This document shows positions 2,098 through 16,821 of a stretch of DNA of 16,821 nt, in pieces (positions within the stretch are counted from its first letter, which is position 1; each line of letters opens with the position of its first letter). The stretch is from a virus (lineage: Duplodnaviria; Heunggongvirae; Uroviricota; Caudoviricetes): the IMG/VR virus record IMGVR_UViG_2671180758_000023, one strand, 5' to 3'. The position numbers were made by a program, and so were the translations under genes. The notes under the pieces are model-generated. The model was not told where the DNA came from. It made no database searches and saw only the letters and a program-made list of their open reading frames with translations.

Positions 2098-2406
2098 TTA
2101 CTTCCTGCGTTTATCCCGCTTTGTATGTCCGTGCTGAATGCCCCGCAGTGGATCTTCTTTTTTCAGGTCGATCCCCATGTCCGTTAGTGTTTTTGTGGCG
2201 GCGGTTCTTATGGCACAAATCAGGTCTCTTTCCGGTTCCCGGGTTATGGTTGCCTTCCGGATACATGCCGTTCGTCGTTCCGTTACATACTGACGCGCTT
2301 CATCACTTGCCGCCTGTTTCAGTAACTCACCCCAGCGATTAGCCGCCCGTCGCCATAAGCCTTTCGCTTCCAGTTCTTCCGCTTTGTCATCATGCACCAT
2401 AAGCAT
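2098..2406 (-). CDS. PerC-family transcriptional activator-like protein (about 100 aa; start at 2406 or 2400)
   Basis: Motif MVHDDKAEELEAKGLWRRAANRWGELL and C-terminal MGID motif, as in PerC/Pch-family proteins. Paralogous to the ORF at 9833-10105. Weak RBS. Confidence 0.55.
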   Translation of the reverse strand: MLMVHDDKAEELEAKGLWRRAANRWGELLKQAASDEARQYVTERRTACIRKATITREPERDLICAIRTAATKTLTDMGIDLKKEDPLRGIQHGHTKRDKRRK

Positions 2407-2907: not shown

Positions 2908-3189
2908 TTACCGCCGTAACCGCTCCGGCTTCTTCCAGTGGTACGTGATTTTCTCCTTCTCCCGATACATCTCCACGCGGCGACGGTATGCCAGCAACTC
3001 AAGGACTCTGGTTCGTATATTGCGCATATCCGCATCGTTAAGTTCAATACCATCACGGCGCATCACCTCAGCAACAACACGCGCATAATTTTCGGCGGTC
3101 ACGCTGTCCGGCTGCGTGGCCTGTTCGTCATGCTGCTGGCTGATTCCAGAGACGCGGCGGATTAATCGCAGTATTTCGGCTTCTGTCAT
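2908..3189 (-). CDS. Hypothetical protein (93 aa) immediately downstream of the large terminase
   Basis: ATG at 3189 with GAGGT about 9 nt upstream. 13 nt after the TerL stop. Charged, helical-looking sequence. No family recognised. Confidence 0.5.
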   Translation of the reverse strand: MTEAEILRLIRRVSGISQQHDEQATQPDSVTAENYARVVAEVMRRDGIELNDADMRNIRTRVLELLAYRRRVEMYREKEKITYHWKKPERLRR

Positions 3190-3202
3190 GCTGCTGACCT
3201 CA

Positions 3203-4864
3203 TTACACCCCGCTAAATTCTTCCAGTTTCTGGCGGTGGCTGTCGCTTATATCAAAAGCAAAATCCTCATGCTCTGCCTGGAATGTACCAAACGCCATCA
3301 GCGCCGCTACGCTCGGGTCTATCTTGTTCGGTGATTTTTTCTTGTTCGGCTTGATATTGGCGTTCGCGTCACTCTGCATCACGACGTTACTCATCGACCA
3401 GGACAACACCGGATCGCCACGATGCACAATCACCCTGCGGTTAACAAAAACTTCGAACGATTTCGCCGCCGGACTGAATCTGAGGTAGGTTTGCGGGAAC
3501 GGCTCCACCTCAAAACCAGCCCCCTGTAATTGCGTCCTGAGATGCGTGGCGTTCCACGTATCAAAGCCCACCAGCCTGATATTAAATTTCTCCGCGTCCT
3601 GCATGATGTCATCTCTGATCCGGTCGTAATCAATGCAGTCACCTGGCGTTGTGCGTATCCAGCCCGCTTTAGCCCACTGGCGATAGACAGCGCGGTTTTT
3701 ATTGGCGGGGTTCTGTAGCTGGAACTCCGGCAGATAATGACGGGAAACCAGCATAATGGTTTTACCTACCGGAAAGGCATAGCACACGCTGGAAATATCG
3801 CTTGTGGATGATAAATCCAGCCCCGCGTAACACTCCTGGCCGTGTAAATCTTCCTCCGTGAACGTTCCGGCACACTCAGCCCATGCGCCGTTACCCATCC
3901 ACGGGGTAGTCCCCTGACACCAGATATTAAATCGCTTTGTCATCATCTCCACCCACTGCGACGGAATACCCCGCGCTTTCTGGATGGTTGAGGCCAGTTT
4001 TTCACGATCCACGGAAACATCGATGTTAGGGTTAGCCTTTATCCACATCGCCGGATCATCAACCTCGTTTTCGTCGTCCAGTTCGTAAATCAGTACAAAA
4101 ATTGAATCGTTGACCTCTTCGCCGTCCAGGATCTGGCAGCAATAATCATAGTGCTGCTTACAGGCTGAAACGACGTTACTGCCCGATGTAGTAATGGCAA
4201 ATAACAGCCCTTCGGGACGTGCGCCCATCCCCAGCTCAAGCGCGGAATAAACGCCGTTATCGGGGTGTAGGTGGTATTCGTCCACGATGGAAAGGCTTGG
4301 GTTTGTGCCCTCGATGGTTGCCGCTTTTGCTGCCAGCGGCTTTAACAGGCTGTTGCTTTTCGGGTGCATCACCTTGTGGGCCTGAATATTCACCCGCCTG
4401 CGTAACGGTCGGGATAAAAGGCACATCTGACGCGCATCATCAAAAACGATCCGCGCCTGGTCACGGCTCACCGCTGCGGTGTAAATATCCTGCTGCCCGT
4501 TCTCCATAATCAGAAACCAGTTAGCCAGAATCGCGGCGGTCGTGGATTTCGCATTTTTGCGTGGCACTTCGATAAAGGCGCTCGTGTATTTGCGCCGTCC
4601 GGTGGCCTTAACCTTAAAGCCGAGGATGCACGCAAAGGCGAACTGCTGCCACGGCTCCAGCTCAATGGGTCTGCCACGCATCGGCCCTTTTACGTGCGGA
4701 CACACCCTGGAAAAGGCAATAAACCGCTCCACAACCTCACGATCGAACGTGTAAAGGGGGCTTTCAAGGTCCGAAAAGTACCGTTTAACGGCCTGTTTCA
4801 GCCGTTTACAGGCCGGAATTTTGCCCGTTTTTACGTCTTCTGCGTACTTATTCCAGGCGGTCAA
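3203..4864 (-). CDS. Terminase large subunit (553 aa), probable TTG start overlapping the terS 3' end
   Basis: Typical TerL N-terminus (MTAWNKYAEDVKTGKIP...) and ATPase/nuclease-like length. First codon in frame is TTG (plus-strand CAA at 4862-4864) preceded by AGGA. Overlaps terS by 17 nt. Confidence 0.9.
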   Translation of the reverse strand: MTAWNKYAEDVKTGKIPACKRLKQAVKRYFSDLESPLYTFDREVVERFIAFSRVCPHVKGPMRGRPIELEPWQQFAFACILGFKVKATGRRKYTSAFIEVPRKNAKSTTAAILANWFLIMENGQQDIYTAAVSRDQARIVFDDARQMCLLSRPLRRRVNIQAHKVMHPKSNSLLKPLAAKAATIEGTNPSLSIVDEYHLHPDNGVYSALELGMGARPEGLLFAITTSGSNVVSACKQHYDYCCQILDGEEVNDSIFVLIYELDDENEVDDPAMWIKANPNIDVSVDREKLASTIQKARGIPSQWVEMMTKRFNIWCQGTTPWMGNGAWAECAGTFTEEDLHGQECYAGLDLSSTSDISSVCYAFPVGKTIMLVSRHYLPEFQLQNPANKNRAVYRQWAKAGWIRTTPGDCIDYDRIRDDIMQDAEKFNIRLVGFDTWNATHLRTQLQGAGFEVEPFPQTYLRFSPAAKSFEVFVNRRVIVHRGDPVLSWSMSNVVMQSDANANIKPNKKKSPNKIDPSVAALMAFGTFQAEHEDFAFDISDSHRQKLEEFSGV

Positions 4865-5204
4865 GCTCGTCCTCTTCTTCTGTTTCCGGTGGATTTTTAC
4901 GGCGGCTTATCGGGTCAAAACCGAGCAAAGAGGCCATTTTTATCATCACTCTTTCAGCGTCGGATTTTGCGCTTAATGCGGGGTTTCTGCTCTCTCCGCC
5001 CTGACTGTTAACAATGCTGAACCCGCGCGCCGCAAGGTCTGCGACGGCTTTCCGGTATATCGAGTAATTGACGCAATACAGTTCCAGATTACTCCAGTCG
5101 GCGGGAGTCAGGTCACCCCGTTCCGCAAGCTGCCGCGATTTTTCCCGCCACTGCTTCACGGCGATATCATCCAGGTAGGCGGGGGCTTTCGGTGGTCTTG
5201 CCAT
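4848..5204 (-). CDS. Terminase small subunit, P27 family (118 aa)
   Basis: MARPPKAP...LELYCVNYSIYRKAVADLAARG pattern typical of P27-family TerS. Position immediately 5' of TerL. Weak RBS. Confidence 0.8.
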   Translation of the reverse strand: MARPPKAPAYLDDIAVKQWREKSRQLAERGDLTPADWSNLELYCVNYSIYRKAVADLAARGFSIVNSQGGESRNPALSAKSDAERVMIKMASLLGFDPISRRKNPPETEEEDELDRLE

Positions 5205-5494
5205 GCTTATTTTTTCGCCAGATTATTTTTCAAAAAATTCCCGTGCATAAAAATTTGAGGAGGCGTTCGGTGCCCGGCGGGGTCGGGTTTGTCCTGAAAA
5301 CGCCCCCCCACCCCGTCATACAGCCTCATCAGCGATTGCGGAAACATTCCATAACCTCGCGGTCACGGTCGGTTAATCGCTTCGCTGTGATGCGTTCTGC
5401 GCGTCCTGACGCTTTATCTTTATGCCCTGTTTCCTGTGTCTTCCATGCGTCACGCTGCCTTATAAGTCCACGGATAAGGCGGTTTTGTTCCCGC
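5205..5494. other. HNH-terS intergenic region; candidate cos/packaging site (G-rich tract tgcccggcggggtcggg at about 5271-5287)
   Basis: 290-bp non-coding gap in an otherwise tightly coupled operon, between an HNH endonuclease and a P27-family TerS, which is the arrangement of cos-type HK97-like phages. The G-rich tract is only loosely similar to lambda cosN (GGGCGGCGACCT). Confidence 0.3.
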
Positions 5495-5935
5495 TCATTC
5501 ATCAGCGTCATACATCCAGTTATTGCGGTTAGCGGCCCGTTCTTCCTCCTCACGGAATCCGCCAGCGGCACGCTTGCTTTTTGTTGCCGGATCAAGCCAC
5601 TTCGTTTTCTGGTTATGACACGCCTGGCACAATGGCTGATGGTTCCATTCGGGCCAGAAGAGAACATCATCACCGCCATTAATCGGGATAATGTGATCCA
5701 CCACCACGGCGGGCGTATATATCCCCTTCTCAAGGCATCGCACGCATAACGGGTTTTTACTCAGATACATGGCGCGGTATTTGTCCCACTGTCTGGAGTA
5801 CCCACGCGCGCGGCGGTGTCCTCGTCTGGCATCCTCTGCACGCCATGCCGCCCGCCTGTGCTCCTCACACTTGCCGGACTTCACGCGCCTGTTACAGCCT
5901 GGTTCTGTGCATCGTCTTAATGGTTGCCACGGCAT
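5495..5935 (-). CDS. HNH endonuclease (146 aa), terminase-associated
   Basis: Cys-rich zinc-finger-like N-terminus (CTEPGCNRRVKSGKCEEH, CVRC) and HNH core (DHIIPINGG...NHQPLCQACHNQK). Start overlaps the connector stop (TGATG). Confidence 0.85.
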   Translation of the reverse strand: MPWQPLRRCTEPGCNRRVKSGKCEEHRRAAWRAEDARRGHRRARGYSRQWDKYRAMYLSKNPLCVRCLEKGIYTPAVVVDHIIPINGGDDVLFWPEWNHQPLCQACHNQKTKWLDPATKSKRAAGGFREEEERAANRNNWMYDADE

Positions 5936-6231
5936 CAGTACACCCCCACATCACGGTAAGCCGTCCAGAGTGCACCAATCGTCATGGGTACGCGTGTTTT
6001 TGCGTTATCCGCGACAATCTGGCGATTTTCATACAGGTGAGCGATAAACATCATGCAGCCAATCTTTATGGCTGGCGTGAACGCCAGCCCGTCATCAAAG
6101 CGCCTGCCTATGTGTATCTGGCACGCCTCAAGCGATGCGGCAATGTATCCGCTGATTAACTGGTCTTCCTCGTCGCCATCGATGCGGCAATGGAGTTTCA
6201 CTTCTTCCAGGGTGATAAGTTCTTCTGTCAT
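5935..6231 (-). CDS. Head-tail connector protein, gp6-like (98 aa)
   Basis: MTEELITLEEVKLHCRIDGDEEDQLISGYIAAS...AHLYENRQ matches the gp6-like connector pattern (LxEVKxHLRID...DxLI). ATGA overlap with the upstream gene. Confidence 0.75.
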   Translation of the reverse strand: MTEELITLEEVKLHCRIDGDEEDQLISGYIAASLEACQIHIGRRFDDGLAFTPAIKIGCMMFIAHLYENRQIVADNAKTRVPMTIGALWTAYRDVGVY

Positions 6232-6566
6232 TTTTCCGCGCCCTCACGACAAAGAATTTCAAGGCGTGTCCTGGCGGCATCCGGCAGCGGCTGCCCGATG
6301 ATATTCAGTACACGCCCCGCCAGCGGCCCCGTATTGACCTTTATCCGGCTGGTGGCGTTGATGTCCTTCCTGTAGCGTATCCATATCCTTACCGTTCCAG
6401 TCGCCAGTTCTGCACCCGATGAAATGGCCTCCTTGCTGCTGATCATGTTCACGCTTGCCCAGAGTGTGTGACCGTCCACCCACGTTTCGAGTATTTCGCC
6501 GGTTATATCCCTGGTCTGTTTCAGGGTCTGAATCGTTACCCTGTCACGCAGTCGCCCTATGTTCAT
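6228..6566 (-). CDS. Head closure / head-tail joining protein (112 aa from ATG 6566; ORF extends to 6608)
   Basis: GRLRDRVTIQ...TWVDGHTLWASV...VRIWIRYRKDI...RIKV matches the head-closure family pattern. ATG at 6566 forms an ATGA overlap with the portal stop. An alternative ATG lies at 6608. Confidence 0.7.
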   Translation of the reverse strand: MNIGRLRDRVTIQTLKQTRDITGEILETWVDGHTLWASVNMISSKEAISSGAELATGTVRIWIRYRKDINATSRIKVNTGPLAGRVLNIIGQPLPDAARTRLEILCREGAEK

Positions 6567-7774
6567 TCCGGTTTTTCTCCCTCGCTGATTTTTACTTCCT
6601 GTTTCCATGCCTGGCTGAACTCATCACCACCATCACGCGGGGACAGCCCTTCACGTTCGCGGGCTTCGTTCGGGCACATAACGCCGGATTTGATGCCGCG
6701 TTCATAGGTGGCAAAGCGTTCGCCAGGTGTGGCCCGTAACAGGTCCGCGCTGTCAAACTCCACCTGATACCGGATACCAGGTACAGGTGAGGCCACCAGC
6801 AGGGCGTTTTTTATCTGCTGCTCAAAGTTCGCCAGCCACGGGCGCATCGTCATGGTGAGAAATGCGCGGCTTGCCTCGCTGAAATTGCTGTAGGTGCTGT
6901 TGCTGTATTCCTGCAAAAAAATCGGCGAGACGTTGAACATTCGGGCGATGTCTTCAATGGTGAAGCGACGGGAGGCCAGCCATTCAGCATCCTGATTACT
7001 CATGCCCAGCTGCTGATAGCTCATACCCCCTTCAAGGATGGGCGTTTTTCCGGCGTTTCTGGCCCCTTTGTAGCGTTCCAGTGCGGCTAATGCCTGTTTG
7101 CCCTTCACGCCGTCCAGCCATTCGCCTGACGTGATAACCCCTGCCGCCATCATGCCATCACGCATCACGCTCGCGCCGTGGCGTTGTTGGGCCAGCCCAA
7201 GCCCCAGCGATTCGCGGCAGATGGTTACAGGTGAGCGCCCCATAAAACCGTCATCCGTGGAGTAACGAAGGTGGAGAACCTCCCACGGTAAATAGTTGCG
7301 GGTGTTTCCGGTGTAGGCGTCAGTGATGCAGTAGCGCCAGTTATGCTCACCTGTCTGCTCCACGTTCACCGACTGCGGCGGGTAAGGATGCAAAGCCACC
7401 GGAAAACCATCACGCCCCCACTGAATCACCGCATAAGCATTACCGTTTAACAGGCAGTGGCGGATCATCATTCGCTTAAACTGGTAGGGGGTTTGCCATG
7501 CGTTCGGGCGCTCGTTGAGGATGTGATCGACCGGATGAGAATCAAGCCACTCTCGGGCCTCCTTCCCCTTCTCATTGCGTACCAGGTACAGGTAACACGG
7601 CATGGTAGCCACCGCCTCAGAGATGACCGTGACGGCGTTCATGACGGCGGGCAGTGATTCCGCTGTCCCCGATGATACGTACTCACCCGCCCCCGTGTTC
7701 GATGTGCCGGCCAGCGCCATAAACTCATCAAGCGTCATGCTGCGCTGCTCTTTTTTTCTTCTGAAAGGCCACAT
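6563..7774 (-). CDS. Portal protein, HK97 family (403 aa)
   Basis: Length and sequence pattern typical of HK97-family portals. RBS GGGGGTG 7 nt before ATG 7774. Sits between the protease and head-closure genes. Confidence 0.9.
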   Translation of the reverse strand: MWPFRRKKEQRSMTLDEFMALAGTSNTGAGEYVSSGTAESLPAVMNAVTVISEAVATMPCYLYLVRNEKGKEAREWLDSHPVDHILNERPNAWQTPYQFKRMMIRHCLLNGNAYAVIQWGRDGFPVALHPYPPQSVNVEQTGEHNWRYCITDAYTGNTRNYLPWEVLHLRYSTDDGFMGRSPVTICRESLGLGLAQQRHGASVMRDGMMAAGVITSGEWLDGVKGKQALAALERYKGARNAGKTPILEGGMSYQQLGMSNQDAEWLASRRFTIEDIARMFNVSPIFLQEYSNSTYSNFSEASRAFLTMTMRPWLANFEQQIKNALLVASPVPGIRYQVEFDSADLLRATPGERFATYERGIKSGVMCPNEAREREGLSPRDGGDEFSQAWKQEVKISEGEKPE

Positions 7775-7775
7775 A

Positions 7776-8348
7776 TCACACCCCCGCTAAATCCGCCCAC
7801 CAGCGGCGATTATCCGCACGCGGCATTTTTTCGGGGTGCTGCTCGTACAGGGAGCGGCGGGCCAGCTCCACGCCGGAATCAGGGTAAGCCGGTACGGATG
7901 TAACGGTAATTTCGTATAGTTCCGCCACCAGCACGGTGCGCACGCATGGATCTGTTGTGGTATCCCATACATCCTTACGGGAACGAAAGCCAAAGCTCAT
8001 GCCGGATATATCACCTCGTTTAACCAGTTCGATAACGTCGCGCCCTGTACTGGTATCCGGTGGGGTCAGTTCAAAGCGTAACCCTGTTTCGTCCTCTTCC
8101 AGTTTCAGCGTGCCGGAACGGGTGCGCCCCAGTAACATGCTGTGGTCATGCTCATACAGGCCGCGAACGTCATTACCCGCCGCAAGCCACTCAGTAAACG
8201 CCCCCCGCTGGAATTTTTCGTAAAACTCCCCCCATAGCAGTTCTGAAAGCTTATCCCAGCGAACAACGTAGCCCGTCAGCGTACCGGCTCCGCTGGTAGT
8301 GATTTCCGATGACCGGATTTCCATACTCTTCATAATTTTTTCACCCAT
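7776..8348 (-). CDS. Prohead maturation protease, HK97 family (about 180-190 aa)
   Basis: Conserved pattern GYVVRWDKLSE...GLYEHDH...LGRTRSGTL...ISGMSFGF typical of HK97 prohead protease. Start may be ATG 8348 or the downstream ATG at 8333. Confidence 0.85.
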   Translation of the reverse strand: MGEKIMKSMEIRSSEITTSGAGTLTGYVVRWDKLSELLWGEFYEKFQRGAFTEWLAAGNDVRGLYEHDHSMLLGRTRSGTLKLEEDETGLRFELTPPDTSTGRDVIELVKRGDISGMSFGFRSRKDVWDTTTDPCVRTVLVAELYEITVTSVPAYPDSGVELARRSLYEQHPEKMPRADNRRWWADLAGV

Positions 8349-8377
8349 AAAACACTAAAGGGGCTTTTAAGCCCCTT
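8345..8377 (-). terminator. Intrinsic terminator/attenuator hairpin between the major capsid and protease genes
   Basis: Dyad aaggggctt/aagcccctt (8358-8377) followed in the minus-strand direction by a GTTTTAT U-tract. Placement immediately after a capsid gene is common for stoichiometry control. Confidence 0.45.
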
Positions 8378-8387
8378 CTGTATGCTG

Positions 8388-9545
8388 TTAATCGTCGTCC
8401 TGTGGCAGTTCCAGAATCTTGATCGCGTTCGAATCCACCACGCCACCGCCTAAATATTTCTGCGTGAAAATTTTGATGAAGCCCGGCTCTGTGAGGTTGT
8501 CCGGTCTGGTGCGAACACCTGTTTCGTGATCAACAATGTAGTAACCGCGTTTGAAGTCACCCAGGGCAATAACGTTATCAGGCATAAACTCCAGATATTC
8601 GACCGGAAGGCCCAGCAACGTATCAGGATCACCCGCCTGTAAACGGTCGCGCCAGATGTAATCACCGTTCGCGTTCTTCACCTTCTGAAGTTTTGCCGCC
8701 GTCGTGGAGTTAACCACCCAGACCGCGTTTTTGCGGTATTTTTTACGTAATGCAAATTTCAGGTCGATCAGCGGGTCCGCAGATGTCCACGCCAGAGATT
8801 CGGAAGGTTTAATTACCTGCAACGTACCAAAATCACGCTCTTTGTCGTTCTTCTCTGCACGGGGTACGGATAAAAAACCTTTTGCTTTTTTGTCACCGTC
8901 GCCCACAACCAGATCGCTTTCTTCGGTTTCCGTGAAGGTGTCGCCAATCTCACCCGTCAGCCATGAAAGGATGTCCACATCGGAAAAATCCACGATTTCC
9001 TGTGTGGTGCGCGGGTACGCATAGACCGGATACAGCTTAATGCTCACCTCGTTAATCTGCGGGGTGCTGGTCTGTTCGCGTGTCTTACCCTCTTCACCGT
9101 GGTTAACGGTCGCACCGCCAGCGGAAACAAGCTGCTTAAACTCGTTGCTGCTGATTTTCTTCACGGTACAGATGCGGCGCATGGTGGATTCATCCGTCAG
9201 CATTCGCATGATTTCGGTGTTCAGTTCGGGGATAACGGTATAACCACCATCAGCGGGAACGCCTGTACTTAATGCGCGGGTTTCACCTGTCAGAATGTAG
9301 TTGCGTAGTTCTGCGGGGTCAGTGGTCTGGCTGCTTTTACCTGGCTTGCTGCGCTCTTCGTCTGCAATGGCTTCAAGGCGGGAAATGTCTTTATCGAGGG
9401 ATTCAGCTTTAGCGCGTAATTCGTCAAATTTTGCGCCCTCAGCATCGTTAAGACTGCGGTTTTCTTTTTCCGCGTTCTCCAGCATGTCGCGCATCTGATT
9501 TTTAATGGCGGTTTTCTGCTGGCGTAATTCGATTATTCTCGGCAT
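8388..9545 (-). CDS. Major capsid protein, HK97 fold (385 aa from ATG 9545; ORF track extends to a GTG at 9593)
   Basis: N-terminal coiled-coil delta/scaffold-like domain (IELRQQKTAIKNQMRDMLENAEKENRSL...) followed by a typical HK97 MCP body. AGGA 8 nt before ATG 9545. Confidence 0.9.
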   Translation of the reverse strand: MPRIIELRQQKTAIKNQMRDMLENAEKENRSLNDAEGAKFDELRAKAESLDKDISRLEAIADEERSKPGKSSQTTDPAELRNYILTGETRALSTGVPADGGYTVIPELNTEIMRMLTDESTMRRICTVKKISSNEFKQLVSAGGATVNHGEEGKTREQTSTPQINEVSIKLYPVYAYPRTTQEIVDFSDVDILSWLTGEIGDTFTETEESDLVVGDGDKKAKGFLSVPRAEKNDKERDFGTLQVIKPSESLAWTSADPLIDLKFALRKKYRKNAVWVVNSTTAAKLQKVKNANGDYIWRDRLQAGDPDTLLGLPVEYLEFMPDNVIALGDFKRGYYIVDHETGVRTRPDNLTEPGFIKIFTQKYLGGGVVDSNAIKILELPQDDD

Positions 9546-9634
9546 AAAAAAAGTCCTGGGGTTAAGTAAGGAACTCCAGGACGCGGCAAACACTCAACCG
9601 TTTTTCATAAGGAAATCAGTAATCGCACCGATCG

Positions 9635-9800: not shown

Positions 9801-9826
9801 TGACAAAAAGCCGGATTGCTCCGGCT
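9801..9826 (-). terminator. Rho-independent terminator after the PerC-like gene (hairpin agccgga-ttgc-tccggct followed by a U-run on the minus strand)
   Basis: 7-bp GC-rich stem with 4-nt loop at 9809-9826. Five A on the plus strand (9805-9809) equal a U-run 3' of the hairpin on the minus strand. 7 nt after the stop at 9833. Confidence 0.6.
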
Positions 9827-9832
9827 GTGTGA

Positions 9833-10105
9833 TTATCTGTCCTGGTAATTTCGCCATATTTCATCGCTTACACCATCTATACCCATTTCAGCATAAGTGC
9901 GATCTACTGCCTTTCTCAGGTCTCCGAAGTTATCCGGCGGCTCCGGTGGCTTCTGTGCCTTCCTGGAACATTCCAGCCGTCGCATCGTAACCTGATGCCG
10001 TTCCTTGTCTGTCTCCACCAGCAGCATGACTTCACCCCATCGCGCCGCCGCCCTCCGGTAAAAGCCTTTCGCCTCGAGTTCTTCCGCTATGCGGTCATGT
10101 ACCAT
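9833..10105 (-). CDS. PerC-family transcriptional activator-like protein (90 aa from ATG 10105; ORF track extends to a GTG at 10225)
   Basis: MVHDRIAEELEAKGFYRRAAARWGEV and C-terminal MGIDGV motif. GAGGGGG RBS 5 nt before ATG 10105. Last gene of the early/replication operon before the terminator. Confidence 0.6.
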   Translation of the reverse strand: MVHDRIAEELEAKGFYRRAAARWGEVMLLVETDKERHQVTMRRLECSRKAQKPPEPPDNFGDLRKAVDRTYAEMGIDGVSDEIWRNYQDR

Positions 10106-10115
10106 CGCCACCCCC

Positions 10116-10526
10116 TCAGAACGGAATACCGTCACCGTAAGGGTCATCGCCTCCCGCTGGTGGCTGATTACCCTGTGTGCCTGTGGTTTTGCGTCTGTTC
10201 CCGCCAGGACGTGCCGCACGGGCACTGATTACGCTGTCTGCAATAACCTGATAACCCTGCCGCGTTTCCCCGTTCTGTCCGGTCCACTGGCTGACCTGCA
10301 TCGTGCCGGATACGCTGGCAACGTCGCCTTTTTGATGTTTAGCCAGGAAGTCGGCCTGCTTACCAAATGCGATGACCGATAGCCATAACGTAGCCTGCCC
10401 ATCCTGCGCCTGACTACATGGCAACGATACCGCCATACGTGCCAGCGTCATTGGTGTGCCCTTGCTGGTCTGTTTTACCTGCGGGTCGTCCACCAGCCGC
10501 CCGTAAGCTGCTATCTGTGCTGTCAT
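10116..10526 (-). CDS. ssb: Single-stranded DNA-binding protein (136 aa)
   Basis: OB-fold-like N-terminal region, Gly/Gln-rich linker and C-terminal acidic tail ending DDPYGDGIPF (SSB DDDIPF-type tip). Strong RBS GGAGAGGTGG. ATGA overlap with the upstream ORF. Confidence 0.8.
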   Translation of the reverse strand: MTAQIAAYGRLVDDPQVKQTSKGTPMTLARMAVSLPCSQAQDGQATLWLSVIAFGKQADFLAKHQKGDVASVSGTMQVSQWTGQNGETRQGYQVIADSVISARAARPGGNRRKTTGTQGNQPPAGGDDPYGDGIPF

Positions 10527-10774
10527 GATTCCACCTCTCCGGTTTTAACGTTGATGGTTGTCACCTGTTCAGCTTCCGCAATCTCCCGCTCTGTCAGCGT
10601 GGCAAAATTTGCCGCCGTCGTGGTCATGAATGCGCTTATCAGTTCGGGATGTGCTTTCGCGTATCCTTCCCCCGCGTGGCGGTCTATCGTTCTGATTGCC
10701 ACCTTTAAGGCGTGCTCTGTCATGTCTAACGCTTTATATTTTGGCTCTGTTCTGTCTCTGTGTTTTTGAGTCAT
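10523..10774 (-). CDS. Hypothetical small protein (83 aa from ATG 10774; ORF track extends to a GTG at 10906)
   Basis: GAGGTGGG RBS before ATG 10774. The ORF portion upstream of 10774 coincides with the iteron array, so it is probably non-coding. Confidence 0.45.
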   Translation of the reverse strand: MTQKHRDRTEPKYKALDMTEHALKVAIRTIDRHAGEGYAKAHPELISAFMTTTAANFATLTEREIAEAEQVTTINVKTGEVES

Positions 10775-10777
10775 TTG

Positions 10778-10985
10778 CCCACCTCTACCCACTTTTTTCG
10801 CCCACTTTTTACGTTTTCCCACTTCGTCCAACGTGGGAAATTTGGGATTTATATCATCTTGTTTCATAGGTATTTTTTTAGTGCCCACTTTTTGGGATAT
10901 ATACACGTGGGAAAGTGGGTAATTTTGTTAAAATTCCGTTAAATCGCCCACCTTTCCCACTTTTAATGCCCACTTTTTACAGTGG
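10778..10985. repeat. Iteron array (about 10 copies of CCCACTT(TT), both orientations) flanking an AT-rich core; candidate replication origin
   Basis: Copies at 10778, 10788, 10801, 10818, 10884, 10947, 10956 and 10969, with inverted copies at 10833-10838 and 10907-10919. AT-rich spacer at 10838-10883. Immediately 3' of the replication ATPase gene, as in PICI/SaPI origins. Confidence 0.55.
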
Positions 10986-12377
10986 TCCTACATCATCACC
11001 GTCAATGTAGATCACGTCGTCTTTTTCCAGTTTGGCTAACCATCGTTTAAGGTGTTTTGTGTCATACCCCAGCTTTTTCATATCGTCACGTAACAGCGGG
11101 ATCGTGCACTTGTCGCCGTGCTGTGTGCGTGAACGTATGCATCCCCATAGCGCGGTATGGTTTTCCGTCTTGTTCCCTGCCTCCTCGATGCGCTCCAGTT
11201 CAACAGGAGGGCGCGGATCATCCACCACCACCAGCGACGTGATTAATTCACCGTCAGCGTCGGTAAAAAGCTCCACCACGCGTAAGTCATATGCGGCTTC
11301 TTTGAGTTCCTCCGCGTCCTTCATTTTGGTGCATGAGATAACCAGCGCTTCGCTTCCTGCGTCCTCCCTGCGTATCCGGTATTCAGCATCCAGCGAAGCA
11401 CGAAATGCACTGGAACCGCGCGCGCCTTTCGTCTCATCCTTGCCGGAATGGTGAACCACCAGCACCGTGGCCCCTGTGCGTCGTTTCAGTTCGTCACAAC
11501 CACGGATAAACGCCCCCATATCACGGGAATCATTTTCATCATTCCCACCAAAGCAACGCGCCAGCGTATCCAGAATAATCATGCGTACAGGTTTACCCGT
11601 TTCCCGCTCCACCTGACGGGCAGCGATAACCATTTCATCAACATCAAGCGGGGCAGCCGGAAAGATGGGGCGGTTTACCAGATACAGATTTTTCACCTGC
11701 TCATCGTGCACAACCTCCCAGGCTTTTACACGACGCGGAACACCTATACCGCCTTCACCAACCACATAGAGAACCGCACCATGTGCAACCCTGCGGCCTC
11801 CCCACTGGCGACCAGTGGCAACATGGCACGCCCACGATCCGGCAAGGAATGATTTATAGGACCCGCTAGCCCCGTATATGCTGCATAGCGATACCGCCGG
11901 AATAATCCCCTTAACCACGTAATCCAGTTGCGTGTCGTATCCGGTAGATCCAACGCTCATCGGTAGCGTGGTTTTTCGCTGGTGGTTTTTTTCTTCCGCC
12001 GGCTCTTTCCCGCGCACCCGTTCCAGGTATTCGCGCCAGTTCTCCCGCATATGGCTGTGCATCCCTTCGGGGTAATAATTCGCATCAGTTACACCCGCCG
12101 CCGCCAGCTTGTGCGCAATGGCATTAATATTTGATGGCCTGATGTGGCCTGCCTTGTACAGCCGGACACAATAGCGCCCCTCGTCGATGATTCTCAGGTC
12201 TGCCAGTTCATCCAGTTGATCATCAGCCAGCACAACGGGAGGCACATTATCGCCAGCCAGTCGCCCGTCCTGTTCCTGCCACTGTTTCGCATGTGCCCAG
12301 GCATCACTACCCGCAAAAATAATGACTTCGGTCATCTTGTCGTAAGGCTGTTTTTTTAAGTTCGGTGCGCTTTTCAT
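10977..12377 (-). CDS. Replication protein, RecA-fold ATPase (RepA/AAA_25-like helicase, pri-rep analogue), 466 aa
   Basis: Walker A-like YGASGSYKS, Walker B-like VRMIILDTLARCF, and VLVVHHSGKD motif typical of RepA-like helicase ATPases. Unassigned N-terminal domain and a C-terminal winged-helix-like tail. A canonical primase domain is not evident by eye. Confidence 0.8.
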   Translation of the reverse strand: MKSAPNLKKQPYDKMTEVIIFAGSDAWAHAKQWQEQDGRLAGDNVPPVVLADDQLDELADLRIIDEGRYCVRLYKAGHIRPSNINAIAHKLAAAGVTDANYYPEGMHSHMRENWREYLERVRGKEPAEEKNHQRKTTLPMSVGSTGYDTQLDYVVKGIIPAVSLCSIYGASGSYKSFLAGSWACHVATGRQWGGRRVAHGAVLYVVGEGGIGVPRRVKAWEVVHDEQVKNLYLVNRPIFPAAPLDVDEMVIAARQVERETGKPVRMIILDTLARCFGGNDENDSRDMGAFIRGCDELKRRTGATVLVVHHSGKDETKGARGSSAFRASLDAEYRIRREDAGSEALVISCTKMKDAEELKEAAYDLRVVELFTDADGELITSLVVVDDPRPPVELERIEEAGNKTENHTALWGCIRSRTQHGDKCTIPLLRDDMKKLGYDTKHLKRWLAKLEKDDVIYIDGDDVGPL

Positions 12378-13369: not shown

Positions 13370-13571
13370 AAAGCATCCCCTGAATATTCGTGTTAATCAT
13401 TCCGGCACGTTTTGTGATTTCCTGTAATGATTCCCTTGTGGCGACAATTGCTTCATCTGGTAAGTGGTAATTACACACCACGCGACCTTTATCCACATTG
13501 ACCAGTAGCTGCCCTGTGAATTTCTCACGAAACTGAATGCGGTTAAGGTCAGTAAGTGACAGATTAATCAT
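13359..13571 (-). CDS. Hypothetical protein (70 aa)
   Basis: ORF in the coupled operon; overlaps the upstream gene by 8 nt. No family recognised. Confidence 0.5.
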   Translation of the reverse strand: MINLSLTDLNRIQFREKFTGQLLVNVDKGRVVCNYHLPDEAIVATRESLQEITKRAGMINTNIQGMLYAQ

Positions 13572-13767
13572 GGCGCACCTCCTGACGAATACGGGCAGCG
13601 AATACCATCACGCAGCCAGCCGGAGATTGCTGGCGTGCTTCCTGTTCGCTGGTGGCCTCAATGGTAATCACGCGCGGTTGTGCCGTGCTCAGGGCGATAA
13701 AACGCCAGATGTATTTATTCAGGTTGTGCGAGTCCCGCCCTTGCGGGTGTGTGGTATTATTTCTCAT
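13564..13767 (-). CDS. Small protein (67 aa) resembling Icd-like (host cell division inhibitor-like) proteins of P4-family elements
   Basis: GAGG RBS 5 nt before ATG 13767. Motifs YIWRF, IEATSEQEAR and FAARIRQEV recall P4-family Icd-like proteins (from memory, not searched). First gene after the divergent promoter region. Confidence 0.45.
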   Translation of the reverse strand: MRNNTTHPQGRDSHNLNKYIWRFIALSTAQPRVITIEATSEQEARQQSPAGCVMVFAARIRQEVRHD

Positions 13768-13802
13768 AGCTACCTCGATACTCTCGTTATCGTTGGTGGT
13801 TA

Positions 13803-13837
13803 GAAGCCCCGTTACTGCTCCAACAGTGCGGGGCTTC
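13803..13837 (-). ncRNA. Leader stem-loop (gaagccccg ... cggggcttc, 9-bp stem, 17-nt loop) in the 5' UTR of the early operon
   Basis: Dyad read directly. Lies between the predicted minus-strand promoter and the Icd-like start codon. Not followed by a U-run. Confidence 0.3.
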
Positions 13838-13874
13838 GTCGTTTCAATTGCTGAATTGCATGTATCAGCACTTG

Positions 13875-13929
13875 TGGTATTCACATTACATTTAGGTGAA
13901 TACCATTTCAAGTCTTTTTTGGTATTCAC
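13875..13929. promoter_or_regulatory. Operator array in the divergent switch region: three copies of TGGTATTCAC (two form a 10-11-10 palindrome), overlapping back-to-back promoters
   Basis: Copies at 13875-13884, 13896-13905 (inverted) and 13920-13929. Minus-strand promoter candidate TTGAAA (13906-13911), 17-bp spacer, TAATGT (13883-13888) overlaps copies 1 and 2. Plus-strand -10 candidate TATTAC (13935-13940) lies just after copy 3. Confidence 0.45.
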
Positions 13930-13972
13930 TTTTGTATTACACTGCATCCCGTTATTAATGGGAGGTGCAAAC

Positions 13973-14278
13973 ATGTCCAGGAGTTCTGTTAACAATAAGT
14001 CACAGCAACTGAATGCCAGATTTCCACATGAAGTAGTGAGTGGCATTGAGGCATCCCTACAGCCAGGGGAAACTAAAGCGAATTTTATAGTTACGGCTGT
14101 ACGCGGTGAGATCGCCCGGCGCCAGGCAGAAGGAAGTGGAGAAAATCCCCTGGTTTCTTCGCTCGATGCACTGGCGCAGGTGGAAAAACTCGGAATCAAA
14201 GCCGCCGAGGAGATCGGGCAGCTCGTCACTGTCGCACGTGAAGAACTCCAGCGCCGCAAGACCAAAGAACCAGAGTAA
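13973..14278 (+). CDS. Ribbon-helix-helix-like DNA-binding protein (101 aa); candidate repressor/regulator of the switch
   Basis: Strong RBS GGGAGGTG 5 nt before ATG 13973. N-terminal beta-strand-helix-helix pattern (LNARFPHEVVSGIEASL...ANFIVTAVRGEIARRQ). Divergent from the early operon. Followed by a clear intrinsic terminator. Confidence 0.6.
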   Translation: MSRSSVNNKSQQLNARFPHEVVSGIEASLQPGETKANFIVTAVRGEIARRQAEGSGENPLVSSLDALAQVEKLGIKAAEEIGQLVTVAREELQRRKTKEPE

Positions 14279-14335
14279 TCACCATCAGCGCCGTGGTGTA
14301 AGGTATTACGGCGCATTGCTATGCAGGACAACACA

Positions 14336-14509
14336 ATGACCGATAAAGAATTGACCAAAACATTATCACCGGCACGGAAAAGACGGCGCAGAAAGATAGA
14401 GCATGAATCAGAAAGATTCGCGCCATGTGCTTTTGCCCTTGAGCAATTCCTTAAAGAGTACAGGGAAAAGCGCTCATTGCAGGTATGGCAACGAACTGAA
14501 CCAGACTGA
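14336..14509 (+). CDS. Hypothetical small basic protein (57 aa)
   Basis: AGGA 8 nt before ATG 14336. Basic patch RKRRRRK. Same transcription unit as the RHH gene, ending before the terminator at 14589. Confidence 0.4.
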   Translation: MTDKELTKTLSPARKRRRRKIEHESERFAPCAFALEQFLKEYREKRSLQVWQRTEPD

Positions 14510-14588
14510 TTGCATTGCCCACCAGCCGCAAATGTGGCATTGTTGGCAATGCTCATGCGTTGGGGATAACGTGTAGCTTGTGTCGAGG

Positions 14589-14617
14589 GGCCACCGTAGC
14601 GGGTGGCCTTTGTTTTG
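14589..14617 (+). terminator. Rho-independent terminator (ggccacc-gtagcg-ggtggcc followed by TTTGTTTTG)
   Basis: Perfect 7-bp GC-rich stem, 6-nt loop and U-run, about 80 nt after the stop of the plus-strand operon. Confidence 0.7.
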
Positions 14618-14985
14618 CCCGTTATTCGGCAATTGTGGCGCTTCTCCACATGGTTGATATAATCCCACTGCTCAGATTCATTTTTTGCGCAGTAGGTTAA
14701 TTGTTCACAAAGGCGCTCCGGCAACGGGGCGCTTTTTGTTTTTATTAGTTTGTAGAAACCTGACTCAGAGATAATGCTCATATTCTGATTGCCGTCAGGG
14801 GTGTAAGTTAAATTTACTCCCTTTTTATCATCAAACATCTGCAACGCTCTGGCGTTAACAATATTGGTTTCACTCCCGCCAGTAAGGCCGGAAATAACCG
14901 GAATAATTTCGGCAAAATTTTGCAGATTCTGTTTTTCAGGACGAACGAAGCCCCGCCCTTGTTCGGGAGAATATCCAGTATTCAT
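14618..14985 (-). pseudogene. Bro-N-like antirepressor N-terminal domain, probably a gene remnant (no in-frame stop before running antisense through the plus-strand operon)
   Basis: Residues DDKKGVNLTYTPDGNQNMSIISESGFYKLIKTKSAPLPERL align to the Bro-N pattern (DEDEKGV...GG.Q...IISE.GLY.LI..S..P.A..F). Weak RBS. The frame stays open for 473 codons to 13564, but the middle section is Ser/Cys/Arg-rich antisense of a well-supported plus-strand gene. Confidence 0.3.
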
Positions 14986-15037: not shown

Positions 15038-15226
15038 TTAGTGAACTGCCTCGCAGCTGTCCTTCCATGCCAGAACTTCGGATAAAGACCAGCCAACGGA
15101 ACGACCGCCCAGCTTACGCCGTGATGGGAATTGTCCGGCTTTTTCCAGGCGGTACCGACATGAGCGGCTCAGGCCTGTAAGTTGCTGACATTCTTTTTCA
15201 CGTATAAAGCGATCTGTGCTTAACAC
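15038..15226 (-). CDS. alpA: AlpA-family transcriptional regulator / excisionase-like protein (about 62 aa, GTG start)
   Basis: Motif QLTGLSRSCRYRLEKAGQFPSRRKLGGRSVGWSLSEVLAWK matches the AlpA winged-helix pattern. AAGGGGG RBS 4 nt before GTG at 15226. Confidence 0.8.
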   Translation of the reverse strand: MLSTDRFIREKECQQLTGLSRSCRYRLEKAGQFPSRRKLGGRSVGWSLSEVLAWKDSCEAVH

Positions 15227-15591: not shown

Positions 15592-16821
15592 TTATATTTC
15601 TCTGGCTATTGGCAATGTGGTTACGTTTTCATGTGTTCCCGCCAGTATCCCTAACCGCTCCGTCCACATATCCAGCGCGTCACGTTTCGCATCCAGATAA
15701 CGGGAATGGTTATAGACTCGTTGCATCCCTGGCATCTGATGACCTGTAAGCTGCTCCACGACGTGAGGATCCACGCCTAAATCGTTCAGCATCGTTGTAA
15801 AGGTGCGCCGGATGTCATGCAGTGACCAGTGAGGGTGTTTTAGCCTCCTGTGCGCTAATCTGCCGTACTGCGACACGCTTGTTTCCTGTTTCAATTCCCC
15901 CAGCAATAAGCCCGTGTGCCTGTTCTGCTCCACCAGCTGCGTGACGAACGGCAGTATTGCTTCCGGTATGGGCCGGAATATTGCCACCTTCGTTTTGCTG
16001 TGTTCTTTCGGCACGGTCCAGAGCATTTCGGTAAAATCCCACTCGCTGATCTCCGATAACCTCAGTTCTACCGTCCGGCATCCGAAAACAATCAGGAGGC
16101 GGATTAGTGCGACGTAGTAAGGGGAAAATATTTTTTTGTCCAGTGCCTGCAATAATTCGCCAAGTTCTTTGGTGCTTAAGACACGCTCGCTTATATCCGG
16201 TTTTTTCCCAACGTCCGCCACACTCATATCATCAAGAACGTTGCTGATTGCATAGCGCCGCCTCCGGCAGAACTTAAGCGCCTGTTTGCACGTCTGTAGC
16301 AAGAATCCGGCAGTAACAGGCGTTCGCTTTGCCACCTGGTCAAAACAGGCCAGCCAGTGCCGTAGCTCGCATTTATCCAGCGGCATAGCACCAATGTGCT
16401 GTATTACGTGATTATTAAGGCGCTTTTTCAGGGCGGCATAATCCACGCGGTTTTCCTTTACGTAAGACTCAAGCCAGTAGGTAAGCGCATCGCCAACCGT
16501 TACGGGCTTTAACGCTTTCTGTACGGTGTAATTCATCTCATGACGTGGATTTTTCCCCTCAGCAAGCCAAGCGCGACACTGTGCCGCTTTTTCCCTGGCA
16601 GCTTTCAGACTCAGATCAGGATAATTTCCCAGCTTAATCCGTTCCGGTCGTGCTCCCCTTCCCGTTCCGGCCCTGTAGGTGAAATACCAGGTTAAAAGGC
16701 CGCTGGTTGAATGCCTGACGCTCAGGTTTCCACCGTCATTAAGAAAAGCTGTTTTTTGGGCGGGTGTGCCGTTGATTTTCCTCAGCTGTGTATCGCTCAG
16801 TTTGTTAAGTGCTCTGCTCAT
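15592..16821 (-). CDS. Tyrosine integrase, P4-type (409 aa); start codon at the window edge
   Basis: N-terminal arm-binding-like domain (LSDTQLRKINGTPAQKTAFLNDGGNLSVRHSTSGLLTWYFTYR) and catalytic motifs (HDIRRTF, C-terminal Y in GMQRVYNHSRY). ATG at 16819-16821. Confidence 0.9.
   Translation of the reverse strand: MSRALNKLSDTQLRKINGTPAQKTAFLNDGGNLSVRHSTSGLLTWYFTYRAGTGRGARPERIKLGNYPDLSLKAAREKAAQCRAWLAEGKNPRHEMNYTVQKALKPVTVGDALTYWLESYVKENRVDYAALKKRLNNHVIQHIGAMPLDKCELRHWLACFDQVAKRTPVTAGFLLQTCKQALKFCRRRRYAISNVLDDMSVADVGKKPDISERVLSTKELGELLQALDKKIFSPYYVALIRLLIVFGCRTVELRLSEISEWDFTEMLWTVPKEHSKTKVAIFRPIPEAILPFVTQLVEQNRHTGLLLGELKQETSVSQYGRLAHRRLKHPHWSLHDIRRTFTTMLNDLGVDPHVVEQLTGHQMPGMQRVYNHSRYLDAKRDALDMWTERLGILAGTHENVTTLPIAREI

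Follow-up and report, generated by a model that had tools for sequence, protein, structure and literature searches.

Capsid-first packaging operon of a phoQ-roxA island as a probable member of the EcCIEDL933 family of capsid-forming satellites

The 16,821-nucleotide stretch of viral DNA analysed here (IMG/VR record IMGVR_UViG_2671180758_000023; referred to below as the window) carries head and packaging genes between positions 2908 and 9593 in an order that differs from that of HK97-like phages, as an earlier note made from the sequence alone had pointed out. We consider it very probable (about 95%) that the capsid-and-packaging operon in this segment belongs to an EcCIEDL933-type capsid-forming phage-inducible chromosomal island (cf-PICI) of Gammaproteobacteria. 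Both the observation and its interpretation are correct but have already been published, and the element fits into a known family as one of its ordinary members. Alqurainy et al (bioRxiv 10.1101/2022.09.08.507074; Cell Host Microbe 2023) reported that the packaging modules of phages and PICIs “have different genetic organisations”, and they already state the capsid-first order and its origin in a deep lineage, not in a recent phage fragment. Moura de Sousa et al counted 969 cfPICI with a “very conserved” organisation, and He et al rely on this gene order when searching for cf-PICIs. The discovery value is therefore small, since the order, the contrast with helper phages and the deep lineage are all contained in the founding cf-PICI papers.

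The operon consists of nine tightly packed open reading frames (ORFs) on the minus strand, whose identities were assigned by profile (hidden Markov model, HMM) searches against Pfam and PHROG. They are given here in the direction of transcription, together with an additional small ORF (orf57) and a putative cos region.

8388-9593 (full ORF), minus strand: major capsid protein (MCP), HK97 fold with N-terminal scaffold (delta) domain; PF05065, E=2.6e-61; phrog_10, E=2e-89
7776-8348, minus strand: prohead maturation protease, S78, HK97 family; PF04586, E=7e-48; phrog_80, E=1.7e-67
6563-7774, minus strand: portal protein; PF04860, E=9.2e-91; phrog_12, E=2.8e-116
6228-6608 (ORF maximum), minus strand: head closure/completion protein Hc1; PF05521 (Phage_HCP), E=9.7e-24; phrog_25
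5935-6231, minus strand: gp6-like head-tail adaptor Ad1; PF05135 (Phage_connect_1), E=1.5e-11; phrog_40, E=4.9e-35
5495-5935, minus strand: HNH endonuclease (packaging cofactor, as HK97 gp74); PF01844, E=1.8e-8; phrog_144, E=8e-45
5329-5502, minus strand: orf57, 57 aa, overlapping the HNH stop (ATGAATGA); phrog_3173 over its full length, E=6e-37
5205-5328, no strand: putative cos region, GGGGTGGGGGGGCGTTTTCAGGAC ... CCTCCTCAAATTTTTATGCACGGGAATTTTTTGAAAAA when read on the minus strand; proposed from motif conservation
4848-5204, minus strand: small terminase subunit TerS, P27 / Terminase_4 family; PF05119, E=1.3e-23; phrog_83
3203-4864, minus strand: large terminase subunit TerL with ATPase and nuclease domains; PF03354, E=1.3e-25; PF20441, E=1.7e-50; phrog_9, E=9e-179
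2908-3189, minus strand: orf93, 93 aa, 13 bp downstream of terL; phrog_1561 (unknown function) over its full length, E=1.5e-56

The profiles bear out every gene identity that had been proposed in the earlier note, with no function reassigned, and together with the coordinates they confirm the order capsid, protease, portal, head closure, gp6-like adaptor, HNH, terS and terL on one strand. The genes themselves had thus been recognized correctly, but two of them, capsid and Hc1, had been started slightly too far upstream. The capsid ORF reaches a GTG at 9593, but its likely start is the ATG at 9545, because the resulting length of 385 aa agrees with the annotation of relatives by the Prokaryotic Genome Annotation Pipeline (PGAP) and with Protein Data Bank (PDB) chain 9gyi_B, the EcCIEDL933 capsid, to which all 385 residues align (E=6.9e-257). 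Hc1 probably starts at 6566 and comprises 112 aa, a length that also agrees with PGAP annotation in relatives; it matches PDB 2kz4_A (112 aa, labelled “head-tail adaptor”) with E=6e-68.

The reference for comparison is the HK97 record (NC_002167), in which terS and terL are followed by portal, protease, MCP, Ad1, Hc1 and the tail genes, with HNH at the right end by cos; this is the canonical order that the earlier note had cited. The description of the window as non-canonical holds for the internal reversal of capsid/protease/portal and of Hc1/Ad1, but not for HNH-terS-terL, which is canonical once an HK97-type genome has circularized. The true anomaly is the reversed internal order of these two blocks with the strand preserved. 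In a breadth-first search over signed circular gene orders, with HNH-cos-terS-terL taken as one conserved block, a minimum of three block transpositions or seven inversions separated the HK97 order from that of the window, which rules out a simple inversion or circular permutation as its source, in agreement with the initial argument.

The capsid-first order is the fixed, family-defining arrangement of the EcCIEDL933-type clade and no peculiarity of the phoQ-roxA locus in which the window lies. This follows from a survey in which ten proteins of the window were compared by tblastn with each fetched locus. The loci comprised annotated records, 12 loci from GTDB genomes and two sets from IMG/VR, 80 obtained by scanning with a single protein and 73 more by an alignment-based scan (12-sequence capsid alignment; the best 80 loci, all at 62-100% identity, contributed 73 added same-order loci). 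The one-strand order capsid, protease, portal, (Hc1), Ad1, HNH, (orf57), terS, terL, (orf93) was unbroken in 157/157 loci whose capsid is 58-100% identical to that of the window. Their hosts are Escherichia, Shigella, Klebsiella, Salmonella, Citrobacter, Erwinia, Rosenbergiella, Gilliamella and Pasteurella, of the families Enterobacteriaceae, Erwiniaceae, Orbaceae and Pasteurellaceae. A distant sample was formed by 14 loci with capsids at most 37% identical; portal was detectable in ten of these and lay upstream of the capsid gene in all ten. For annotation purposes, the capsid-first order thus split satellites from prophages (157/157 related loci versus 0/10 distant relatives). The module is also abundant, being present in 1505 of 5426 complete Escherichia coli genomes, in 410 of them at ≥80% coverage.

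Sequence divergence separates the same two sets of elements. Satellite-sized records are 57-82% identical to the window, whereas genuine tailed phages do not exceed 40% for MCP, 36% for TerL and 36% for portal; the closest of them, Pseudomonas phage VW-6S, shows the canonical order in full, with the tail genes next. The phage-database records above 57% identity are two 15-17-kb “phages”, which are cf-PICIs, a 3.8-kb fragment and a 106-kb Klebsiella record, the latter matching in its last ~16 kb. No ordinary tailed phage with a capsid-first order was found in the phage database or among the surveyed loci. The earlier note had named a frequent occurrence of this order in ordinary tailed prophages as evidence that would speak against it, but the tailed phages proved canonical, and synteny groups the window with the EcCIEDL933 clade. 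The invariant order and the gap in identity (57-82% versus ≤40%) support the view, put forward in that note, of a distinct and long-standing satellite lineage. Within the related loci, median identity is 52% for Hc1 and 62% for Ad1, compared with 80-82% for portal, TerS and TerL; the strong divergence of the former two fits their published role in tail specificity.

Two of the surveyed loci differ from the rest in composition. The IMG/VR locus L081 is a mosaic, with 69% identity in the capsid, 96-97% in protease and portal, 47% in Hc1, 73% in Ad1 and 100% in HNH/terS, which shows gene-by-gene recombination between cf-PICIs with the order unchanged. In Rosenbergiella sp. YN46 (L007, 4158-6700), matches to capsid, protease and portal are followed by a terL match ~750 bp past the portal start, and the module at this locus looks degenerate, with part of it deleted.

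The packaging operon is part of an island inserted between phoQ and roxA. phoQ occupies positions 1-1461 as the first gene of the window, and the far end of the window is the start codon of a tyrosine integrase gene. Homology to the end of a related island integrated at tqsA begins at position 1490, so the island runs from ≤1490 to beyond 16821. A collinear island lies between phoQ and roxA in E. coli O157:H7 strain F6321 and in other Shiga toxin-producing E. coli (96.6% identity, 90% coverage), and roxA is found within 250 bp in the F6321 locus. From the start of homology at 1490, the integrase at the window edge and the proximity of roxA in F6321, the size of the island is estimated at ~15.5 kb. 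Its backbone, upstream of the capsid gene, includes the following genes, and a gene for a DUF4222 protein is also present between the integrase end and the phoQ end.

15592-16821, minus strand: tyrosine integrase; PF00589, Arm-DNA-bind_3
15038-15226, minus strand: AlpA regulator; PF05930, E=3e-18
10977-12377, minus strand: RepA-type AAA_25 helicase, 466 aa; profile matches
10523-10906, minus strand: phrog_1231 ORF, upstream island backbone
10116-10526, minus strand: SSB, upstream island backbone
9833-10225, minus strand: PerC-family regulator ORF, just upstream of the capsid operon

We assign the island to the cf-PICIs because integrase, AlpA, RepA-type helicase and SSB are present while tail and lysis genes are without a match. 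At the sequence level, it has all the properties by which He et al define a cf-PICI. Its size falls within the published range of about 10-18 kb; integrase, AlpA regulation and a replication module make up the backbone; all eight packaging functions are recognized above Pfam gathering thresholds, with PHROGs in agreement; and the genes follow the clade-specific order capsid-protease-portal-head connectors and hnh-terS-terL on one strand. Tail, holin and endolysin/lysin families of Pfam and PHROG were not matched by any scanned island ORF, and the ORFs that stayed unassigned are all ≤154 aa. An HK97-like phage or prophage would differ in its head-gene order, in having tail, lysis and full lysogeny modules and in a genome of about 35-60 kb. 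A classical PICI of the EcCICFT073 type does not match either, as the island has its own portal, adaptor, connector, capsid and TerL; in SatelliteFinder, portal, adaptor and connector are “forbidden” in classical PICIs, which rely on helper capsid proteins.

The closest known system is the EcCIEDL933-like island at the tqsA site of O157:H7, whose packaging module shares 98.8% DNA identity with that of the window and contains the same nine annotated genes and the small ORF, with the same PGAP names and order. We infer that this tqsA island is EcCIEDL933 itself, since the capsid of the window matches PDB 9GYI over its whole length; 9GYI was described by its authors as the EcCIEDL933 capsid, with T=4 symmetry, a size of 47.5 nm and a 15.5-kb genome. 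Genes for an integrase, AlpA-type regulator, PerC, SSB and DUF4222 protein are common to EcCIEDL933 and the window island. The two islands differ in their integration site (phoQ-roxA versus tqsA) and in their replication protein, which is the 466-aa RepA/AAA_25 helicase in the window and a 605-aa primase-family protein in EcCIEDL933. In addition, about 0.9 kb of cargo (2009-2906), including a second PerC gene, sets the window island apart.

More distant members of the clade are LR881103 (Escherichia phage vB_KppS-Ant, 16.5 kb; MCP 65% and TerL 81% identical) and OR544139 (Pasteurella phage Pmp8, 15.3 kb; MCP 58% and TerL 69% identical). Both share the gene order, but differ from the window in host, integrase, replication genes and the cargo that follows terL. 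Divergence is strong in their Hc1 and Ad1 (37-61% identity), and tblastn did not detect Hc1 in Pmp8. The HK97-like phages (HK97, VW-6S and the ST64B/SfI group) use the same families for all eight functions; as in the window, HNH adjoins cos and terS after circularization, and a hairpin follows the capsid gene. They differ in their terS-terL-portal-protease-MCP-Ad1-Hc1 order and in their 37-45-kb genomes with tail and lysis modules. The two clades of Firmicutes cf-PICIs described by Alqurainy et al share minimal gene content and lifestyle with the clade of the window, but one of them starts with portal-protease-capsid and the other with HNH-terS-terL, and the published capsid and TerL trees indicate an independent origin. 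Finally, the nearest other solved capsid by sequence is that of the Rhodobacter capsulatus gene transfer agent (PDB 6TB9/6TSU, E=3e-46). This agent, which is not a satellite, also forms a small HK97-fold head; the comparison covered the capsid protein.

Two features of the operon, orf57 and the cos-like region, were not listed in the earlier note and are additions of the present analysis. orf57 is annotated as hypothetical by PGAP in relatives and was detected in 116 of the 142 related loci that have HNH. Its C-terminus is conserved (RDRE.xECFRNR), and its DNA is diverged in Klebsiella-type elements. The cos site of the island probably lies within 5205-5328, between orf57 and terS. This region contains a motif composed of GGGGTGGGGGAGGTTTTCAGGAC, a spacer and CCTCAAATTTTTAYGCAC...ATTTTTTGAAAA, which is conserved from E. 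coli to Pasteurella and Gilliamella and has a G-rich and a C-rich arm, so that it is G-rich in the 5'-3' direction when read on either strand. LR881103, a linear “induced prophage” record, ends at ...GGTTTTCAGGAC, with ...TTTTCAGGAC as its terminal letters in the cos-like region, and restarts 22 nt before terS. The cf-PICI portion of the Klebsiella record PQ569648 likewise ends in the cos-like region, inside the orf57 homolog.

The operon is also accompanied by two hairpins.

9809-9826, minus strand: terminator-like hairpin with a 7-pair stem followed by TTTTTGTCATG, between the PerC gene/replication module and the capsid gene
8357-8378, minus strand: GC-rich hairpin with a T-run, directly 3' of the capsid stop; putative attenuator or mRNA stabilizer

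The upstream hairpin suggests that the packaging genes are transcribed separately, with the hairpin insulating them from the replication module. Equivalents of the post-capsid hairpin, likewise an addition to what the earlier note had listed, are kept, with varied stems and loops, in all 13 cf-PICI representatives analysed for it (from among loci L002-L010, L058, L075, L079, L081 and L091), including those of Pasteurella and Gilliamella. Most of the canonical-order relatives that were folded also have a hairpin 3' of the capsid gene, and a putative terminator is annotated at this place in the HK97 record. The post-capsid hairpin therefore looks ancestral, and by itself it does not explain the capsid-first order.

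The mechanism in which these genes act has been shown experimentally for EcCIEDL933, and near-identity allows it to be carried over to the window island. A helper phage would activate alpA and thereby cause excision and replication of the island. The capsid protein, protease and portal of the island would form small T=4 procapsids, into which HNH, TerS and TerL would package unit-length (~15.5 kb) island DNA after cutting it, presumably at the cos site between orf57 and terS. Hc1 and Ad1 would then complete the neck and let helper-phage tails attach, and would decide which tails can dock. Transcription may start from an operon promoter downstream of the 9809-9826 hairpin, and the post-capsid hairpin may lift capsid expression relative to the downstream genes. 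In the characterized system, each packaging gene is needed for transfer of the island, but not of the phage (Alqurainy et al). Helper induction, small T=4 capsids, exclusive self-packaging and the use of helper tails would be expected of the window island by analogy, the indirect indications being the 98.8% DNA identity to a characterized module type and the capsid match to 9GYI.

Instead of a satellite operon, the segment could represent an HK97-like prophage in decay, or a phage head module acquired recently, in which tail and lysis genes have disappeared and the gene order was locally scrambled. In favour of this, its eight proteins all belong to ordinary HK97-type phage families, and the island resembles a prophage in having an integrase at one end. 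Such an origin is very improbable, however, given that the same order recurs in all 157 related loci from several bacterial families, that hundreds of complete E. coli genomes (410) have the module at ≥80% coverage, and that the closest genuine phages are at most 40% identical. The backbone is moreover of the PICI type (AlpA, RepA, about 15.5 kb), all genes are intact, and a near-identical module is functional according to the literature. Order invariance, identity gap, backbone and gene integrity together effectively refute the degraded-prophage reading. It is scarcely conceivable that the order is an artefact of ORF misassignment or of misassembly in the window: although the genes were first identified without database tools and two ORF starts were slightly long, the HMM E-values lie between 1e-8 and 1e-179, for most genes the profile is covered over its full length, and the same order is given by independent PGAP annotation of other genomes and by independent phage-database records, which refute this reading. 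Some points nevertheless weigh against assigning the operon to an EcCIEDL933-type cf-PICI. The phoQ-roxA island is known from sequence alone, and its RepA helicase and integration site differ from the primase and tqsA site of EcCIEDL933, so that helper range and inducibility can be no more than predicted. A promoter scan of the region upstream of the capsid gene detected no sigma-70-like promoter on the minus strand. Moreover, the cos assignment is based on conservation and the ends of two database records, not on mapped termini, and LR881103 lacks about 70 nt of the cos-like region.

A further idea, which would add to the cf-PICI assignment and not replace it, is that the capsid-first order is kept by selection for expression stoichiometry and is not a frozen accident. 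A capsid gene in first position, followed by an attenuating hairpin, would yield capsid subunits in large numbers and those of portal, connector and terminase in small ones. This is consistent with the retention of the post-capsid hairpin in 13/13 representatives despite varied stems and loops, and with an order that stays constant though genes recombine singly, as in L081 (MCP 69%, protease/portal 96-97%). We nonetheless regard it as unlikely: the hairpin is shared with most folded canonical-order relatives and has a counterpart in the HK97 terminator, so it is ancestral and requires no capsid-first order; the Firmicutes cf-PICIs work with other orders; and the argument is drawn from sequence. 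Still more doubtful is the fuller proposal that order invariance reflects selection in which the capsid gene and an attenuator hairpin determine in what proportion capsid, portal and terminase are made for a T=4 head, with HNH-orf57-cos-terS-terL placed last. If this were true, cos would lie inside the 3' part of a late operon, and gene order would be a functional trait of the clade, reached via at least three transpositions.

The last gene of the operon, orf93, had been described as an unassigned extra member. It is indeed present and without an assigned family function, having no Pfam family match and no PDB relative in sequence searches; a single-sequence AlphaFold2 prediction gave a low-confidence three-helix model (predicted local distance difference test score, pLDDT, of 66). 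It is not a core member: orf93 occurs in 54 of the 139 related loci that have terL, and LR881103 and Pmp8 have other genes in its place. It should rather be seen as a variable gene of the region after terL. In the EcCIEDL933 paper (Alqurainy et al), mutation of “hypothetical gene 1792”, a gene of the packaging module, strongly lowers transfer; this gene could be orf57 or orf93, as the description fits either. Together with the cos-like motif and the post-capsid hairpin, orf57 and the variability of orf93 could be of help in work on cf-PICI packaging.

Downstream of orf93 lies the cargo that distinguishes the window island from collinear elements.

2009-2906, no strand: cargo segment of ~0.9 kb, absent from collinear elements in E. 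coli F6321 and Shigella flexneri
2098-2406, minus strand: second PerC-family gene, in the cargo segment
2515-2805, plus strand: 96-aa ORF, in the cargo segment

The island therefore carries two PerC-family activator genes, one at 9833-10225, as in EcCIEDL933-type islands, and one at 2098-2406. PerC homologues (Pch) regulate virulence genes of the locus of enterocyte effacement in enterohaemorrhagic E. coli.

Several relatives of the island were found inside prophages or phage records. In nine IMG/VR contigs (L058, L063, L064, L066, L075, L086, L089, L167 and L169), a cf-PICI relative with a capsid 63-73% identical to that of the window sits within the terL gene of a prophage. The layout is an N-terminal part of the prophage TerL, then the satellite, with its integrase first and its own terL last, and then the rest of the TerL nuclease domain. 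The N-terminal part corresponds to the ATPase domain and, in L058, also to the start of the nuclease domain; the split gene is located at 885-2078 and 16566-17291 in L058 and at 1530-2177 and 17179-18240 in L075. At several of these loci, including L058 and L075, the prophage portal and further head genes come next in canonical order, and the capsid-first order still separates satellite from prophage where a cf-PICI sits inside one. At least two insertion points and prophage types are represented, and three other loci (L079, L091 and L171) have a single prophage flank only. No description of cf-PICI insertion into terL was found in the satellite papers searched. A different association is seen in the record PQ569648.1 (L004, “Klebsiella phage P12620-1”, 106.5 kb), in which ~90.6-106.5 kb constitute a complete cf-PICI in cos-to-cos permutation, with terS first and orf57 last. 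A complete cos-to-cos satellite in the last ~16 kb suggests that a phage and a satellite packaged along with it were assembled into one chimeric record.

In the backbone of the window island, the 473-aa ORF at 13564-14985 (minus strand) is probably no single real gene; its last ~90 residues alone match phrog_6196 (transcriptional repressor), and a phrog_6522 ORF is found on the opposite strand at 13973-14278.

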